Shown: positions 34,882 to 58,669 of the stretch, one piece after another
How positions within the stretch are numbered: the first letter of the stretch is position 1
How the letters are laid out: the number at the start of each line of letters is the position of its first letter
Position numbers and translations under genes: made by a program
The notes under the pieces: model-generated
Seen by the model: the letters and a program-made list of their open reading frames with translations, nothing else
Databases searched by the model: none
Told to the model about the DNA's origin: nothing
Virus record (IMG/VR): IMGVR_UViG_3300037200_000120
Coordinates: 34,893 to 98,892 of that record
Length of the DNA: 64,000 nt
From: a virus
Reading direction: 5' to 3' (one strand)

Positions 34882-35103
34882 TCAATGCAGCTTCCCCGCT
34901 TCCGCGCGCTCTTCGTCCGTCACTTCGGCCGCAATCCATTTCCCACCCGGGAATGGCCCGGCGACAACACGCAGACATTTGCGGACGCTGACGAATTCCG
35001 CGTCGTCGTCGCCATCAAAAAAATAGTTGGTGATTGGCGCGGTTTCCGAACCGCGCTTGACGACACCGTCGAGAAGATCGACCGAAACCTCGCGTTCGCT
35101 CAT
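34882..35103 (-). CDS. Hypothetical protein
   Basis: Start overlaps the upstream stop (ATGA). Confidence 0.45.
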   Translation of the reverse strand: MSEREVSVDLLDGVVKRGSETAPITNYFFDGDDDAEFVSVRKCLRVVAGPFPGGKWIAAEVTDEERAEAGKLH

Positions 35104-53428: not shown

Positions 53429-53663
53429 GCGGAGACCTCGAATGTTGACCCAGCATCCGCCGCCAAATCCGGCGCGACATGCCAACTGCAATGGACCGAA
53501 TGTTCGCAGACCGAATAATAGACCTCACATTGGCCCGTGAAACGGCAGATATTCGAAAGCCCGTGGGCGATATCCAGAATCGTGAAATGCGAGGTCTCAG
53601 GTTCGAGCAAGTTGAGCAGGATAGTTGGGCCGTGGATGCGTTTGATGGAGGCCACTACGTCAC
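53425..53663 (-). pseudogene. Truncated HD-domain (YfbR-like) nucleotidase
   Basis: DIAHGLSNICRFTGQ...YSVCEHSV, then stops before the LLHD motif. Confidence 0.65.
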
Positions 53664-54223
53664 TCCCCCTTCGCCGATTCATCGCCGGACTTGGTCCACC
53701 GAGCGCTGGGAACGGTCAGCGTCCATCGGGCTTGATCGTCGCCGAAAGCCGTCCGAGGCGAACCAGCCTGCGCATCCCCTGGCGCACCGTCTTTCGTGCC
53801 GCCCCGGCCATCGCCAGCCTTGTCAGAAGCGCTACGGCTGAGAAACACCGGCTGGCCCTGCCCGAGCTTCTGTTGGGCTTGCCGGAGCGCTTTGCGCATT
53901 TCTGGGTCGGGAACGACCGTCACCGCGAGCGGAGTCGGTTCATCGGGGCCGGCGATCCAGAGATCAAACGATTTGTCGTCAACGGAGTGCATCGCGAAGA
54001 GTTGAAATTTATCTGGCAGCTCGCTCATCGCGCGTGCTTGCGGGTATCCGAGGATCGCGCGCGTAGCCAGAGGCGTCCAGCACGCCAGCACCGCGAGAGA
54101 CAGCGCAAGCGCGACTTTCACCCCGATCGCGCCGGCGGACGTCTTGAATATCCACGTCACGGCGCAGACGAGTAGGCCGAGTAGAGCGGCGTCGGTGAGA
54201 ATGAATGTGGAAAAGGGCGTCAC
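53660..54223 (-). CDS. Two-TM membrane protein, third gene of MotA/TolQ-like module
   Basis: GTG start 54223; two hydrophobic helices then LGYP...FDLWI...EPTP soluble domain. Confidence 0.55.
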   Translation of the reverse strand: MTPFSTFILTDAALLGLLVCAVTWIFKTSAGAIGVKVALALSLAVLACWTPLATRAILGYPQARAMSELPDKFQLFAMHSVDDKSFDLWIAGPDEPTPLAVTVVPDPEMRKALRQAQQKLGQGQPVFLSRSASDKAGDGRGGTKDGAPGDAQAGSPRTAFGDDQARWTLTVPSARWTKSGDESAKGE

Positions 54224-54399
54224 GGCTTCTCTCCCCACCGATATAAGAACGGCTGGCAACTGAACTTGTCGCCAGGATTGCGTTCCACAAGCTCGTAGCC
54301 GTCGCCTTTGCATAGAGCCTCTGTGGGATAACGCATGTGTAGAATGTATGGATCGACTGTCGGCGACCAAACAATGAGCAACCAAAATCCAAACATCAT
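54220..54399 (-). CDS. Small hydrophobic protein (59 aa, not in ORF track)
   Basis: MMFGFWLLIVW...; ATGA/GTGA overlaps at both ends. Confidence 0.5.
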   Translation of the reverse strand: MMFGFWLLIVWSPTVDPYILHMRYPTEALCKGDGYELVERNPGDKFSCQPFLYRWGEKP

Positions 54400-55061
54400 G
54401 GCGTCCCCGGCGTCGGCGCCGCTCCTGGTGTATGTGACGAAGCCCCCGGCGGCCCCTGATAGAACCTCGCCGTGATCGGTTCGACAGGAAGTTCAGCCTC
54501 GACGAAACCGCCATCAGGCATGACGTCCATCGACCAAATATTGACCGAGTCCCCTTCAAATTCTAAAATGACGTCGGCGCGGTGGATCATGACGACCTTC
54601 GGGTTGATTTTGACGACCTCGACGTGAACCACGATTCCGAGCGCGTGAGGATCGCGAACGCGGTGGTCGTCGGCGGGGCGCGTCTTGTACGCATGGACGC
54701 CGTAGACGTAGTGGCCTGGGACGATACCGCGGAGCGACATGGTTTCTTTGTGAGGCAGGTAAACCAAGTGGTTATCGACGATCAGCCGGTCGTCGAGGTA
54801 TCCTCGCGAATCGCGATCCAACGAAAGCGCCCCGCCCTCCAGATTTTGATAAAAAACAGGATTTTTCGGGTCTGGGGGACCAACGGCCCAAAGGTCAATG
54901 TCGTCGTCCAACTGGGCGCTCCACTCGATGGTCACGAGATACTCGGCCTTGACTTGAACGCCGTCAGCAACCTTCTTCGGCGCAACCGAGACGATCAAGA
55001 TAGCTACAATCACAAGTAGCATATCTACGTAGGCCAAAAGCGTGCCGGCGCGGCGTTTCAT
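54396..55061 (-). CDS. MotB/ExbD-like single-TM protein with soluble beta domain
   Basis: AYVDMLLVIV TM with Asp; IEW...DIDLW...LDRD...E. Confidence 0.6.
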   Translation of the reverse strand: MKRRAGTLLAYVDMLLVIVAILIVSVAPKKVADGVQVKAEYLVTIEWSAQLDDDIDLWAVGPPDPKNPVFYQNLEGGALSLDRDSRGYLDDRLIVDNHLVYLPHKETMSLRGIVPGHYVYGVHAYKTRPADDHRVRDPHALGIVVHVEVVKINPKVVMIHRADVILEFEGDSVNIWSMDVMPDGGFVEAELPVEPITARFYQGPPGASSHTPGAAPTPGTP

Positions 55062-56944
55062 ACGGAGACCTCGGCGAAAAGAGGACCATGATCTGCAGGC
55101 TTACCTTTGAGCTTCGCCTTGATGCTCTCGCGTGCTCGCTCGTCGGGGCCGGCGAGACACAGTTTCATCCGACGTTCGATATCGGCGAGGTATTCGGTCT
55201 CGCGTTCAATCAGGACAGCGTTGAAGCCTTCGCGATATGATGCCTCGCCAGTCGTGCCCGTGCCAGCCATCGGATCAAGGATCGTTCCGCCGGGAGGACA
55301 GAGCAACCGGCAGACCCATTGCATGAGATCGACAGGCTTGACGGTCGGGTGTTTGGAACCAAGGCGCGATTCGCTGTCAGCCTTTCCCGAGTAGTGGAAT
55401 CGCTTTGCGAATTTTGTCCTCGCATCCTTCGGCGATTCCTCGCTCGCGGTGGCGCATTCGATGGCATGAAATACAGAGCCAAACAATTGCTTCAGGCTTG
55501 TTGTAGTCGTTATGATGTCTGTGTTTTCCCGCCCCTCCACATGAAGCGCAAGGTTGTGGCGTAGGATTCGCGCGCTGCGCTCTGAGATAAAATCCGGCAA
55601 CGGAAGTGATTCCAAGTCGCGGCGAGTCTTTGGCCCGGCAAGCCCTTGAGCAATAGCTGTTGCGCATAAGTCGCACAGGTCCGCCGCAGACCTTACATTT
55701 TGGACGATCTTTGACGGAAGCAGCGGCGGCGCACTCGGTTGAGCAGAAGCGCCGTTCAGCGGATGGCATTCCTTTGAATGGCTTCCCGCATTGGTCGCAC
55801 GGCCGCTCGACGGATTGCTCTTGTCCGCGCTTTCTGGCGCTTGCAAGACCGCTGCATTGACGGGAACAAAAGCGTCGCTTTGGATGTTTTGAGTCTGTGA
55901 CGCCGATTCCGCATTGTTCGCATTGCATAGCTGATTGGTATCTGATTGGACACCGCAAAGCAAGCCGCAAAGATCGCAACGGGGCTCATTTTCTTGAGGA
56001 AAAGAAGCAAAGAACCGCGCCGCAGAGCCGGAATCGCCAATGTGGCCGCGTTCATCCTGCAGCTTGAACTCGCCATAAACTCCGTTCGTCTTTGGCTCGT
56101 TGCGGCGGCCGCTGAATGTTCCGCTGGTGGTGTCCGGGAACGCCGCCAGCACTTCATCTGATCCGTCGTGGACAAGGTTCGCGGGCCATCGACCAAGCGG
56201 GCTGGCGGTCACGTTTCCACCGTTCGGCTTGAACGAAATATTTGCGCCGTCGAGATCGCTACCCACAGACGTCTTGTAGCCGTTCTGAATGCGGTAAAGA
56301 GGATTGGTTGCTGCGTTCTTTGTGTCCTCGTAGGCGATCCGAGTGGCATCAATATTCAGCGCGCCGACGCCCCAACGCCTCACATTTGCCTCAACAGTGC
56401 GCTCTGATAAAGGCTTCCGCGCCAAGCAAATCGGCTCCCACGCGGGCTTCAAGGCCCCGCCCCAAGGTCCAATCGGGTTGCCTTCCTCGTCTTGAAAAAT
56501 GTAACCTTGTTTGTTGAAGCCAGTTCCATAGGTCCACGCTAATTGATCACGAATCTGGAAACCAGCGTCTTCGATTGCGCACGCGAGCCGATGGTACGTC
56601 CGCGTTCCTCCGAACGCTGCGAGGTGGCCACCAGGCTTGAGCACACGCCGGGCCTCGCGCCAAAACTCGACGTTGTGCGCAATGCCAGTCCCGTCCCATT
56701 CCTTGCCCATGAACCCGCCAACGGGCCGATTATCTCCGTTGACGCCTACACGGGCGCGCGCAAATGGCATGTCATTGAGAGGAGGCGGGTTCTTTCTGTT
56801 TGCCTGCGTAAGCTCATAGGGCGGATCGGTCACGACAGCATCAACCGAATTGTCGGCAAGCGTTTTCACCACGGCTATGCAATCGCCAGCGTGGACGATG
56901 ACCCGACCGCCAAGAAACGAAACCGCCTGCGCGCCGTCACCCAT
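55058..56944 (-). CDS. Beta-class N6A/N4C DNA methyltransferase with ~200-aa insertion
   Basis: VTDPPY, RVLKPGGHL, GRWPAN, HPTVKP, ILDPMAGTGTTG. Confidence 0.88.
   Translation of the reverse strand: MGDGAQAVSFLGGRVIVHAGDCIAVVKTLADNSVDAVVTDPPYELTQANRKNPPPLNDMPFARARVGVNGDNRPVGGFMGKEWDGTGIAHNVEFWREARRVLKPGGHLAAFGGTRTYHRLACAIEDAGFQIRDQLAWTYGTGFNKQGYIFQDEEGNPIGPWGGALKPAWEPICLARKPLSERTVEANVRRWGVGALNIDATRIAYEDTKNAATNPLYRIQNGYKTSVGSDLDGANISFKPNGGNVTASPLGRWPANLVHDGSDEVLAAFPDTTSGTFSGRRNEPKTNGVYGEFKLQDERGHIGDSGSAARFFASFPQENEPRCDLCGLLCGVQSDTNQLCNANNAESASQTQNIQSDAFVPVNAAVLQAPESADKSNPSSGRATNAGSHSKECHPLNGASAQPSAPPLLPSKIVQNVRSAADLCDLCATAIAQGLAGPKTRRDLESLPLPDFISERSARILRHNLALHVEGRENTDIITTTTSLKQLFGSVFHAIECATASEESPKDARTKFAKRFHYSGKADSESRLGSKHPTVKPVDLMQWVCRLLCPPGGTILDPMAGTGTTGEASYREGFNAVLIERETEYLADIERRMKLCLAGPDERARESIKAKLKGKPADHGPLFAEVSV
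55377..55928 (-). CDS. Zinc-finger HNH endonuclease nested out of frame in the methyltransferase
   Basis: Three CxxC...(F/Y)CSxxC repeats plus CASCG...HHNDYNKPEAIVWLCISCHRMRH. Confidence 0.8.
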   Translation of the reverse strand: MQCEQCGIGVTDSKHPKRRFCSRQCSGLASARKRGQEQSVERPCDQCGKPFKGMPSAERRFCSTECAAAASVKDRPKCKVCGGPVRLMRNSYCSRACRAKDSPRLGITSVAGFYLRAQRANPTPQPCASCGGAGKHRHHNDYNKPEAIVWLCISCHRMRHRERGIAEGCEDKIRKAIPLLGKG

Positions 56945-57431
56945 TCCGGCGGGCCTTCCGCAATGAGGCGTTGAGTACATGAGACAGCACCAGCACGATC
57001 GCGAAGCCGGAAACGCCAGCCAAAGTGGAGAACAGCGATGTCCCGAGCATCGCCAGCACATCGCCGCCTTCCCGGAGGGCCACAGCTTGTTGAGAGAGCC
57101 CGTACACCGTGCCGCACAACCCGATCGCTGGCGAGAGGTCGGCCGCGATGCCTCCCCACTCGGCTGAATCCTCGATCTCGGCGACCGTGTCGAGTTCGTC
57201 GGCGTAGTTCCCAGCATCAGGCACCCGCCAACACAAATACCCGATATAGGCGGCCGTCCCGATCACGAGCGCCGCCACGAGCGACGAGGCATGGCTCAGA
57301 TCGTCACGCCAGATGCGACTGAGAAGTCCGAAATGGCCGGCATAAAAGGCTGCGATCCCCATCGCTACGACGATGGACAGCCATTGGAGAAACGCCGGCT
57401 TGCGGGCGGTCATGGGTTCCATCCTAGACAA
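56937..57431 (-). CDS. MotA/TolQ/ExbB proton-channel family protein
   Basis: Four hydrophobic helices; PAIGLCGTVYGL and GTSLFSTLAG match the family motifs PxxGxxGTVxG and ALxTTxxG. Confidence 0.7.
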   Translation of the reverse strand: MSRMEPMTARKPAFLQWLSIVVAMGIAAFYAGHFGLLSRIWRDDLSHASSLVAALVIGTAAYIGYLCWRVPDAGNYADELDTVAEIEDSAEWGGIAADLSPAIGLCGTVYGLSQQAVALREGGDVLAMLGTSLFSTLAGVSGFAIVLVLSHVLNASLRKARRNG

Positions 57432-57560
57432 ATATTATGGTCCGGAGCAGCCCAAACGAGGAACGCCACAAAGGCAACCGCGAAAAGCGTCACGACGATA
57501 AATTCTATTGGACTGGTCATATGATTCTCCGCGAGAAACCCCCTTCAGGGCGGGGATCGG

Positions 57561-58010
57561 TTACTGATCTTGACCCTGAGGCGGTTCGTGTTGAACATCA
57601 CCGACTTCGTTGAGCAGGGTGACGAGCGCCTGGGGGACAGGCATGATATCGCAAGCCCTTGAGGCGTCGATGAACACCACCAGCGACTTATCGCCGTTCC
57701 GCGCCAGCGCCGCCGCACCGCCGTAGGGAATGCCTTCAGGCGTATGAGGCGCCATGATCGAGACGCCGCGTAAAAATTGGAATTGATCCTGCGTCAGATC
57801 GATCCATGTCGCCCCATTGGTGGAGGCGACTCGCGATTTCATCTCGGCGAGTTCCATACAGTGGTGCGGAGCCGTAGCGCCATCCGCCCGCGCGTGCTGA
57901 TACGCGGCCATTTCCCCGCAAAGGGCGAGGCCTAGAATCGCGGCGCAAGTAAGCGCGCGGCGATCTTTGATTGCAAAACGCACTGTTTGGTCTACATTGA
58001 ACCCTCTCAT
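57561..58010 (-). CDS. Hypothetical membrane/exported protein
   Basis: Hydrophobic segment after RR; RBS GGAAGGG. Confidence 0.45.
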   Translation of the reverse strand: MRGFNVDQTVRFAIKDRRALTCAAILGLALCGEMAAYQHARADGATAPHHCMELAEMKSRVASTNGATWIDLTQDQFQFLRGVSIMAPHTPEGIPYGGAAALARNGDKSLVVFIDASRACDIMPVPQALVTLLNEVGDVQHEPPQGQDQ

Positions 58011-58669
58011 GATAGATTCCCCTTCCTTTGAAACTCTCGCGCCGCCGCGAGCAGACGACAGACTTCCGGTTCTTTCCGATTGATGATCTTGGCGATTTCC
58101 GCCGTGTCCCGCCCGCGTCGAAACAGATCGAGCACGGCGGCGCCGGCCCGGTCCCATTTCGAGAGAGATTGGATTTCAGCATCGGAAAGAATGGTCACGA
58201 CTGCGCCGCCTTCCATACCTCGAACGAAGCCGCGTTGGCTGCGATGATGTTGAGATCCTTCCCGACGATCGTGAGCGCGGCCAGAATGGCCTTCTGCCGA
58301 ACGACCCAGGCCTCGGTGCGTTTGAGTTCGCCTTTTTCGGCGCGCTCAATCAGGTTGAGGTTGCCTCGGTATAGGAGGTGCATCTCTTCGGAGACGCCGA
58401 GATAGTTGGTCGTCATGGCGCAGCCCCCGCGTCCATCTTCTCCCGCTCCACAATCAACATCGTCTTGCAGAGCCTTTCCATATGATGGAGAATGCGATCG
58501 TTGCCCGCGAGGTCGCCCAAGAAATTACGCACCTCTGCATCTTCGGTTCCGAACTTGCCGGACGGAGAGGCGTCGGCGAGCGGAGGTAGTTGCGAGCCCC
58601 AATGATTGACCGCGAGGGAGAAGGCTGACTCGGGGTTCAATGCCTCGATCTCGGCGACTGAGGGGAGCG

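Follow-up and report, generated by a model that had tools for sequence, protein, structure and literature searches.

A three-gene cassette of phages and Alphaproteobacteria that is probably a reduced relative of ion-driven membrane motors

Why would a phage carry genes for small membrane proteins that resemble the subunits of ion-driven motors, with a DNA methyltransferase gene lodged among them? The question was raised by a 64,000-nt stretch of DNA from a peat phage, hereafter the window (IMG/VR record IMGVR_UViG_3300037200_000120, positions 34,893 to 98,892), in which a first-pass annotation had proposed a MotA/TolQ-MotB/ExbD-like module. The three genes concerned, here termed A, B and C, lie on the minus strand where that annotation had placed them. 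We consider it very likely that they form a reduced, undescribed relative of the flagellar, Ton and Tol ion-driven membrane motors. Our literature search found no paper on the A-B-C cassette.

Gene order and the methyltransferase insert

This part of the window is one translationally coupled operon that runs U, a 36-aa open reading frame (ORF), A, the methyltransferase, B, a 59-aa ORF and C. The start/stop overlaps described at first pass are all present. The stop of A and the methyltransferase ATG share 8 nt (ATGGGTGA), ATGA links the methyltransferase stop to the ATG of B and again the stop of B to the ATG of the 59-aa ORF, and GTGA links the stop of the 59-aa ORF to the GTG start of C. The first-pass annotation had made its proposal depend on the three genes travelling together elsewhere, and they do: the order is A-B-C on one strand in 111 of 111 independent loci that have all three families, and in the loci compared C always follows B. 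This arrangement is far beyond chance.

The N6/N4 DNA methyltransferase gene (55058..56944, minus strand; PF01555, 6e-26; phrog_67) is assigned a start at 56944 because its ATG lies in the 8-nt overlap with the stop of A. The other 123 loci with both A and B have no methyltransferase at this place. A is followed by B in 124 loci. The median A-B gap is 22 nt, and the gap is 1,905 nt in the window compared with at most 310 nt in every other such locus. The third-position GC content (GC3) of the methyltransferase is 0.61, against 0.68–0.75 for A, B and C, and its ATG occupies the 8-nt overlap where a relative (L012) has the ATG of B. Judged by these sequence comparisons, the methyltransferase is a later insertion that lies outside the cassette and preserved translational coupling, and so it does interrupt the module, as first suggested. 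Its presence indicates that the operon tolerates large inserts if coupling is kept.

The gene status of the two small ORFs is uncertain. The 36-aa ORF (57410..57520, minus strand; GC3 0.49) encodes a single helix, its stop overlaps the ATG of A (ATGA), and it is an orphan with no homologue in the fetched loci. The 59-aa ORF between B and C (54220..54399, minus strand; GC3 0.58), with a hydrophobic N-terminus and two Cys, is likewise an orphan, with no homologue in any fetched locus. Small unrelated inserts occur between B and C in other loci too.

The predicted subunits and their known counterparts

Gene A (56937..57413, minus strand) encodes a 158-aa minimal channel subunit of the MotA/TolQ/ExbB family. 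A TTG at 57431 (56937–57431) offers an alternative start, and the ATG at 57413 is the more likely one because homologues begin there. Family membership, claimed at first pass, is borne out by a match to Pfam MotA_ExbB (PF01618) at 26.1 bits (cut-off 22.9) and by three homologues that score 30.3, 27.4 and 27.3 bits (L008, L002 and L010). When the family profile was compared with the PDB, the top eight matches were all TolQ or MotA; the best was TolQ (E 0.005), and matches to solved motors were all weak (E 0.005–0.1). The PxxGxxGTVxG motif reported earlier is present as SPAIGLCGTVYGL, and the conserved channel positions align with TolQ GLFGTVWG and with MotA. Across 116 sequences GxxGT102xxG, T130 and D38 are conserved, with G98, G101, T102, G105, T130 and G133 each kept in 102–105 of the 116.

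The four transmembrane (TM) helices proposed for A resolve into three that are strongly hydrophobic by hydropathy and a fourth, amphipathic channel helix. Positive-inside counts fit an N-in orientation for both A and B, and the charge bias of A is N-in, C-in. The TM2-TM3 loop, about 30 acidic residues, is variable in length, and A lacks a sizeable cytoplasmic domain of the kind that forms the MotA torque interface or the ExbB/TolQ helical bundle. A is thus a minimal variant of the family in which the channel helices and both conserved Thr residues are kept and the cytoplasmic domain is almost absent. It is the smallest MotA-type subunit that we found described, and is therefore attractive for structural and mechanistic work.

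Gene B (54396..55061, minus strand) encodes 221 aa, one N-terminal helix followed by a predicted beta-sandwich. The helix contains LAYVDMLL, in which Asp13 lies near the cytoplasmic end at the position typical of MotB, ExbD and TolR, and an acidic residue (Asp or Glu) is found in this helix in about 137 of 143 full-length representatives. Here the MotB/ExbD likeness drawn at first pass holds, but it does not extend to the soluble domain. MotB_plug is matched at the N-terminal helix by 3 of 100 B relatives (best E 0.0067), and the helix matches ZorB chains 8qyd_F and 8vvi_A at the same place (E 0.28–0.29), both weakly. Pfam searches gave B no sequence-level match to the ExbD, TolR, MotB or TerD families, and gave neither B nor 100 relatives a match to PF02472, PF02342 or OmpA at E<=1.

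The AlphaFold model of B (pLDDT 74.7) places the soluble domain closest to two TerD entries: Streptomyces SCO6318 (2QZ7; chain 2qz7_B, VIA-align Z 9.8, 137 aligned residues, rmsd 3.9) and Klebsiella pneumoniae TerD (2KXT; Z 9.0, 143 aligned, rmsd 4.3). The match after these scores only 5.9. Foldseek also recovers TerD-type entries (E 1.6e-3 to 8e-3), and a comparison of B with PDB sequences returned no TerD match. W47, D54, D56, D84, G87 and E106 are invariant among 100–147 diverse representatives, and the acidic clusters (DxD 54-56, D84-x2-G87, E106) are ones that we take to resemble the Asp-rich metal sites of TerD. On the model, the soluble domain of B is a TerD-fold beta-sandwich with invariant acidic clusters; it is probably periplasmic and, by analogy with TerD, probably binds Ca2+. 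We rejected B as an ExbD/TolR or MotB protein beyond its helix because the modelled domain is TerD-like and PF02472 and OmpA matches are absent. A weak alternative lead is DUF2135/YfaP (2 of 100 members; Atlas score 0.85). Known members of the TerD family reside in the cytoplasm as soluble proteins and are not known to carry a stator-type helix.

Gene C (53660..54223, minus strand; GTG start) encodes 187 aa: a TM hairpin (residues 3–28 and 33–58; AlphaFold, pLDDT 67), a small beta/alpha domain (about residues 61–131) and a disordered tail rich in Gly, Lys and Asp. In the family alignment a conserved (M)LGYP follows helix 2, and G59, P61 and W89 are conserved across the 106 sequences compared. 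C has no Pfam match, its soluble domain has no significant fold match, and neither B nor C has a model in Pfam, NCBIfam, PHROG or PADLOC. With two helices, no TolA/TonB-type SHLS/His motif (and no His in either helix) and no C-terminal TonB/TolA domain, C does not qualify as a TolA/TonB force transducer.

Upstream of A, gene U (57561..58010, minus strand) encodes 149 aa, a protein that is either secreted or anchored in the membrane and has two conserved, paired Cys residues and a single hydrophobic N-terminal segment (residues 19–37). Its homologues lie directly upstream of A in seven loci (L021, L022, L025, L026, L027, L034, L042) and directly downstream of C in five (L013, L014, L015, L029, L036). 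By this placement U is an accessory fourth partner, confined to the soil/peat clade.

The closest organizational parallels are TolQ-TolR-TolA and ExbB-ExbD-TonB. There too, three inner-membrane genes stand in a row and are translationally coupled: a PF01618 protein with GxxGTxxG and a further Thr is encoded first, then a one-helix protein with an essential-type acid near the cytoplasmic end, and last a membrane-anchored protein that projects a soluble part. Unlike these systems, the cassette has an A with four helices and hardly any cytoplasmic domain, a TerD rather than an ExbD/TolR fold in the periplasmic domain of B, and a C with two helices instead of one. A shares its MotA-type four-helix topology with the MotAB/PomAB stators and ZorAB, and the B helix recalls MotB and ZorB. 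However, the cassette lacks the torque-generating interface of the stators and the OmpA-like peptidoglycan-binding domain of their B subunits, and unlike Zorya it lacks the long ZorA tail, ZorC and ZorD. Among described categories the nearest is the 'generic ion transporter' class (PMC12505986), whose cytoplasmic domain is condensed to two or three helices; the loop of A is shorter still. Another parallel is with putative motors that combine a predicted TolQ-like pentamer with a non-ExbD, non-MotB partner, the transpore-helix vWA proteins (Mol Biol Evol 2025, PMC12204202). There too the partner shares only the Asp-bearing helix and carries a different periplasmic head, but that head is vWA and the gene pairs are heterologous, whereas the cassette has a TerD-fold head, a single B and an obligatory two-helix C. 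The same paper makes no mention of the A-B-C family or of phages that carry one.

Distribution in phages and Alphaproteobacteria

The cassette is common to many phages and Alphaproteobacteria. The B family comprises about 1,700 clusters at 50% identity, and one pattern scan found the cassette on at least 119 contigs of viruses. Among cultured phages, those of Rhizobium and Sinorhizobium carry it in early or DNA-metabolism regions, and their B proteins are all annotated as hypothetical. It corresponds to p038-p042 in Sinorhizobium phage 16-3 and to 191-193 in Rhizobium phage P10VF, and Azospirillum chromids have it as well; in these tractable systems its function is therefore directly testable.

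A longer, cellular version, A-B-C plus a lipoprotein, sits among housekeeping genes in Alphaproteobacteria, so the cassette is not specific to phages. This form adjoins apt, rpoZ-spoT-folK or thrB in small, streamlined alphaproteobacterial genomes of 0.8–2 Mb. Its A proteins score 38 bits to PF01618, and its lipoprotein is a further likeness to tol-pal. Its gene context suggests a constitutive envelope system. The cassette has no linked TonB-dependent receptor, TolB or Pal.

Possible roles at the cell envelope

The roles put forward at first pass were superinfection exclusion, interference with host Ton, Tol or Zorya complexes, and envelope remodelling. We consider it probable that A and B, perhaps with C, constitute an ion-driven motor. 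A and B would form an A5B2 complex in the inner membrane like other family members, and flow of ions, probably protons, via the Thr ring and the Asp would move the B dimer against the A ring. Since A lacks a cytoplasmic face, we infer that the output would be in the periplasm or membrane; it would pass through the probably Ca2+-binding sandwich of B, and through C. C would bind the A ring in the manner of TolA and TonB and project into the periplasm, where U would serve as a further partner in its clade. More tentatively, the role may be that of an early-expressed accessory envelope machine, with which the phage would take over or replace the A-B-C-lipoprotein system of an alphaproteobacterial host, keeping or reshaping the envelope in infection. 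To this explanation as a whole (a motor cassette, an envelope role and an inserted methyltransferase) we assign a probability of roughly 0.45. Counting against it are the missing sequence-level matches of B, the absence from C of a TolA/TonB-type motif and of a recognisable soluble fold, and bare chromosomal islands and endolysin neighbours in two loci, which fit other roles equally well. The family tree, midpoint-rooted and unevenly sampled, is compatible with transfer in either direction between phages and cells.

Alternatively, though we think it unlikely, the cassette could serve superinfection exclusion or abortive infection. The A-B channel would be plugged until the B sandwich, C and U sensed envelope damage by an incoming phage, whereupon it would open and membrane potential would collapse; phages would carry the cassette to keep competitors out, and in bacteria bare copies would be retained for defence. 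Bare A-B-C islands do occur in bacterial chromosomes, amid ordinary metabolic genes on Roseiarcus-type contigs (L012, L016, L017), and have lower GC3 than neighbouring genes. Their existence would suit a defence role, as would the early, accessory-rich regions that the cassette occupies in phage genomes and its patchy distribution (B is present in 55 of 401 sampled Alphaproteobacteria genomes, 14%). A MotAB-like defence motor has a precedent in Zorya (PMC11946911). Counter to this, PADLOC recognised none of A, B, C and U, the 132 loci show no linked effector gene, and the cellular form, fixed beside housekeeping genes in its small genomes with a lipoprotein partner, argues mildly against pure defence. 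Conservation of the channel residues is like that of working motors, but this does not separate exclusion from the motor reading.

Less probable still is a lysis-associated module that would depend on the proton gradient and time or complete envelope disruption. It might, for instance, keep the envelope together until the holin dissipates the gradient, or act on the outer membrane in the way of a spanin. The two endolysin neighbours are the evidence for it: a GH19-like enzyme directly upstream of A in L014 and an Amidase_2/PG_binding_1 enzyme directly downstream of U in L036. In the phage of the window, however, about 56 kb separate the cassette from the sole Amidase_2 endolysin found, the neighbours in cultured phages and most loci are DNA-metabolism genes, a search of 132 loci that took in the longest C ORFs revealed no fusion to a lysozyme, and a cellular form in a housekeeping context is unexpected for a lysis gene.

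We give slightly less credence to a passive ion channel or membrane scaffold that reuses the MotA fold. This would accord with the lack of a cytoplasmic torque or coupling domain and of a known output partner, and with the weak matches to solved motors, but no positions of A and B are better conserved than those that define ion coupling in the family, the Thr ring and the partner-helix acid, which are described as essential (PMC12204202). That A and/or B would mix into host TolQR, ExbBD, MotAB or ZorAB and disable them, as was also proposed at first pass, is very improbable: A is very small and without a cytoplasmic domain, as a dominant-negative form might be, but the cassette is always inherited whole, the channel Thr and Asp are strongly conserved across the roughly 1,700 B clusters, and a decoy would need no conserved dedicated partner, periplasmic domain or cellular counterpart.

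The preferred reading, a motor acting on the envelope, bears on how energy leaves the inner membrane. To our knowledge, ion-driven 5:2 motors are the only route known in Gram-negative bacteria by which inner-membrane energy reaches the periplasm and outer membrane. With each new class of motor to date (Ton, Tol, gliding/T9SS, Zorya), a new process has come to light. The cassette represents a large family, two of whose three proteins are without database models. It is conceivable, if speculative, that A-B-C constitutes a further functional class of 5:2 ion-driven motors, next to the flagellar, Ton/Tol, gliding/T9SS and Zorya classes, with a Ca2+-binding, TerD-fold rotor head. Such a class would be largely a viral invention or speciality, a proton-gradient machine that phages place in the inner membrane of the host and that acts on the envelope, and one lineage of it may have been domesticated as an alphaproteobacterial housekeeping operon.

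The cassette proteins and their relation to ion-driven motors

Protein A (56937-57413, minus strand), which the first-pass annotation had placed in the MotA/TolQ/ExbB group, matches Pfam MotA_ExbB at 26.1 bits against a curated cut-off of 22.9, and this bears out the assignment. The protein contains SPAIGLCGTVYGL. A profile of the A family searched against the PDB placed TolQ (E 0.005) at the head of its top eight matches, followed by six MotA sequences, all covering the GxxGTxxG helix and the helix that follows. Conservation across 116 non-identical phage and cellular sequences is highest at G98, G101, T102, G105, L127, T130, G133 and D38. The two conserved threonines correspond to the threonine ring that coordinates the Asp of the partner protein. 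Charge bias places both termini in the cytoplasm and the acidic TM2-TM3 loop, variable in length, has only about 30 residues; from these features we deduce a MotA-like topology lacking a cytoplasmic working surface. In this respect even the forms with a 'condensed cytoplasmic domain' listed in PMC12505986 are larger than A. Neither a tblastn search of cultured phages nor a single-protein scan of viral contigs returned a match to A.

Protein B (54396-55061, minus strand; 221 aa) is the putative partner. Neither B nor C has a family in Pfam, PHROG, NCBIfam or PADLOC, and PHROGs holds none for A or for the 59-aa ORF that separates B from C. The Asp of the LAYVDMLL motif is present at the aligned column in 119 of 147 B representatives, and most of the others have an acidic residue (Asp or Glu) displaced by one turn. 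Over this helix a few relatives match MotB_plug and ZorB chains align as well, both non-significantly. In one small subfamily (P0155, P0188, P0194, P0196, P0221) the membrane Asp is replaced by Asn (TNF[SA]LT) and a Lys lies seven residues further on; these proteins may be variants with a swapped or relocated charge.

The soluble 180 residues of B are modelled as an all-beta sandwich (pLDDT 74.7). In an exhaustive structural search with this model, TerD proteins alone stand out, with Z scores of 9.8 and 9.0 over 137-143 aligned residues (next 5.9), and Foldseek agrees weakly. By this model, the head of B has a TerD-type fold. Sequence methods recovered no TerD relationship: the B profile had no match among solved structures, a wider profile gave non-significant matches only, and DUF2135/YfaP and PPC-type sandwiches recurred as weak leads. 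Residues W47, D54, D56, D84, G87 and E106 are invariant in alignments of 100-147 diverse sequences, and the acidic ones among them would be compatible with a putative metal site.

The model of protein C (53660-54223, minus strand; 187 aa), with a pLDDT of 67, combines a helical hairpin with a small beta/alpha domain and a tail that is disordered. Its fold searches are dominated by the hairpin; the soluble part drew only insignificant OB-like matches, and none was convincing. Alignments of C diverged too far to support a pattern scan.

Gene junctions, the methyltransferase and the genomic setting

The three ORFs are present where the first-pass annotation placed them, and a base-by-base reading of the junctions confirmed the start/stop overlaps it described. 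The TGA of A and the ATG of the methyltransferase gene (55058-56944, minus strand) share ATGGGTGA. ATGA joins the methyltransferase stop to the start of B and, again, the stop of B to the start of the 59-aa ORF (54220-54399, minus strand; two Cys), whose own stop overlaps the GTG of C in GTGA. The true start of A is probably the ATG at 57413, which gives 158 aa in agreement with homologues and overlaps, also as ATGA, the stop codon of a single-helix ORF of 36 aa that lies upstream (57410-57520, minus strand). Homologues of the 59-aa and 36-aa ORFs occur in none of the 132 related loci fetched, and their GC3 values are 0.58 and 0.49, respectively. They may be recent inserts, or no genes at all.

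The methyltransferase is a secondary insertion that preserved translational coupling, as the earlier description of an interrupted module implied. Three observations carry this conclusion. The interval between the A and B matches has a median of 22 nt and reaches at most 310 nt elsewhere, compared with 1,905 nt in the window. In a close relative, L012, the ATG of B occupies the 8-nt overlap with the A stop, exactly as the methyltransferase ATG does here. Finally, GC3 is lower in the methyltransferase (0.61) than in A (0.75), B (0.68) or C (0.71). Small unrelated inserts are found in the B-C interval of several other loci too. None of the metagenome contigs aligned with the window spans a methyltransferase-free junction.

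The Pfam match of the methyltransferase falls in two separate stretches (approximately residues 18-254 and 515-591), with about 250 unmatched residues between them. This unmatched stretch holds an out-of-frame ORF of 200 aa with many CxxC motifs (55377-55979, minus strand), listed separately in the first-pass annotation as a possible HNH nuclease.

The virus record, of peat origin, is 98.9 kb long and about 95% complete; the window covers its bases 34893-98892, and almost all window genes lie on the minus strand. The cassette is surrounded by DNA-metabolism and accessory genes, including several methyltransferases, a VRR-NUC-type nuclease and a DUF2312/GapR-like protein. A promoter and terminator scan gave signal no higher than shuffled background. 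Short contigs identical to parts of 56243-58225 (parts of the methyltransferase, A and upstream genes) are present in a second peat metagenome from an independent study, so the same or a very close phage recurs in peat. One contig has a 1-nt deletion at 56835, at low depth.

Distribution in phages and cells

Close metagenomic homologues (60-87% identity) number a few dozen each for A, B and C and sit on same-sized contigs across all three lists, which indicates that the genes travel together. For a broader comparison, loci drawn from viral contigs, cultured phages, species genomes and metagenomes were scored with HMMs built from our own alignments. Co-occurrence of the three genes elsewhere had been set in advance as a test, and it was found: among 132 distinct loci, A and B are together in 124, B and C in 118 and all three in 111. 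The order is A-B-C on one strand in every one of these 111. The B family is large: a profile searched against 1.84 billion representatives recovers 1,697 clusters at E<=1e-3, of which 1,001 pass E<=1e-10, and nearly all are 190-240 aa long. One pattern scan picked up at least 119 viral contigs, some above 300 kb.

The gene for B is also present in 29 records of cultured Rhizobium and Sinorhizobium phages, annotated as hypothetical in all; cassettes include 16-3 p038-p042, P10VF 191-193 and RHph_N3_19 065-067. In Sinorhizobium phage 16-3, a temperate phage that has been well studied (L009, 2271-4132), where every cassette gene is unnamed, p038 matches MotA_ExbB weakly (E 0.14), p040 is B, and p042 is probably C by position only, as the C profile has no match in this locus. 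The small extra genes p039 and p041 separate these three, and p036, just upstream of the cassette, encodes a periplasmic-type serine protease.

Gene U (57561-58010, minus strand) encodes a secreted protein upstream of A and recurs in twelve soil/peat-clade loci, either directly before A or directly after C; it is in neither the aquatic nor the cellular forms of the cassette. This shift of position within the module argues for U as a functional associate of the cassette.

Cellular genomes carry a related system. Of 401 genomes sampled from Alphaproteobacteria, the class to which a Roseiarcus MAG belongs, 55 encode B. In the cellular form, as seen in eight inspected genomes (some as small as about 0.9-2 Mb), A is longer, with about 215-220 aligned residues, and a fourth gene encodes a roughly 250-aa lipoprotein that has a lipobox Cys followed by E-x-x...FPL and a below-threshold match to DUF3108_like. 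This cassette adjoins apt, glyQS, rpoZ-spoT-folK or thrB, and forms an operon after apt or rpoZ-spoT-folK in L063 (7547-10333), L066 (7454-10147) and L065 (7735-11116). Chromids of Azospirillum brasilense and A. argentinense (H70-H76, 1.75-2.05 Mb) each have two matches to cellular B at 31-35% identity, so that Azospirillum offers a carrier of the cellular system that can be cultured and genetically manipulated. In the B tree, the clade with long A is placed among viral clades; given midpoint rooting and uneven sampling, we do not read a direction of transfer from it.

The closest relatives of the phage copy are bare A-B-C islands on Roseiarcus-type MAG or metagenome contigs, with B 66-67% identical (L012, 4445-6193; L016, 3234-4982). 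RNase D, racemase-like, formamidase-like and ABC-transporter genes surround them, and GC3 in the islands is below that of neighbouring genes. Judged from sequence, these patterns suggest that the islands are phage-derived and hint at Roseiarcus as the likely host lineage of the phage.

Possible function of the cassette

The family membership of A, the retention of ion-coupling residues in A and B, the TerD-type fold of the modelled B head, the strict synteny and coupling of A-B-C, and the origin of the methyltransferase by insertion are established. A and B would form a complex of the 5:2 type, with the proton gradient as its driving force. Because A lacks a cytoplasmic domain, B and C would pass the output on to the periplasm, as in TolR/TolA, ExbD/TonB or GldM. 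Our leading reading, held tentatively at a probability of about 0.35, is a role in envelope takeover or maintenance, related to the host A-B-C-lipoprotein system.

Exclusion or abortive defence ranks second and seems unlikely. A link to lysis is more doubtful again. Its sole contextual hint is that endolysin genes adjoin the module in L014 (3936-4541; GH19-like, 23.2 bits, just below cut-off) and L036 (6901-7737; Amidase_2 with PG_binding_1). The only Amidase_2 endolysin found in the phage genome lies about 56 kb from the cassette; no C in the 132 loci is fused to a lysozyme, and the C ORFs of greatest length (224-289 aa) lack such a domain too. That A and B make a channel without motor activity is slightly less probable than a lysis function, and a decoy of host motors is very improbable.

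In the searched literature we found no description of the cassette, and the motor-diversity surveys PMC12505986 and PMC12204202 do not include it. We place the cassette with the MotA/ExbB-family 5:2 motors, as a probable variant. To this variant the window contributes the model-based TerD-fold assignment of B, the accessory gene U, a unique methyltransferase insertion, and bare islands in the probable host lineage.
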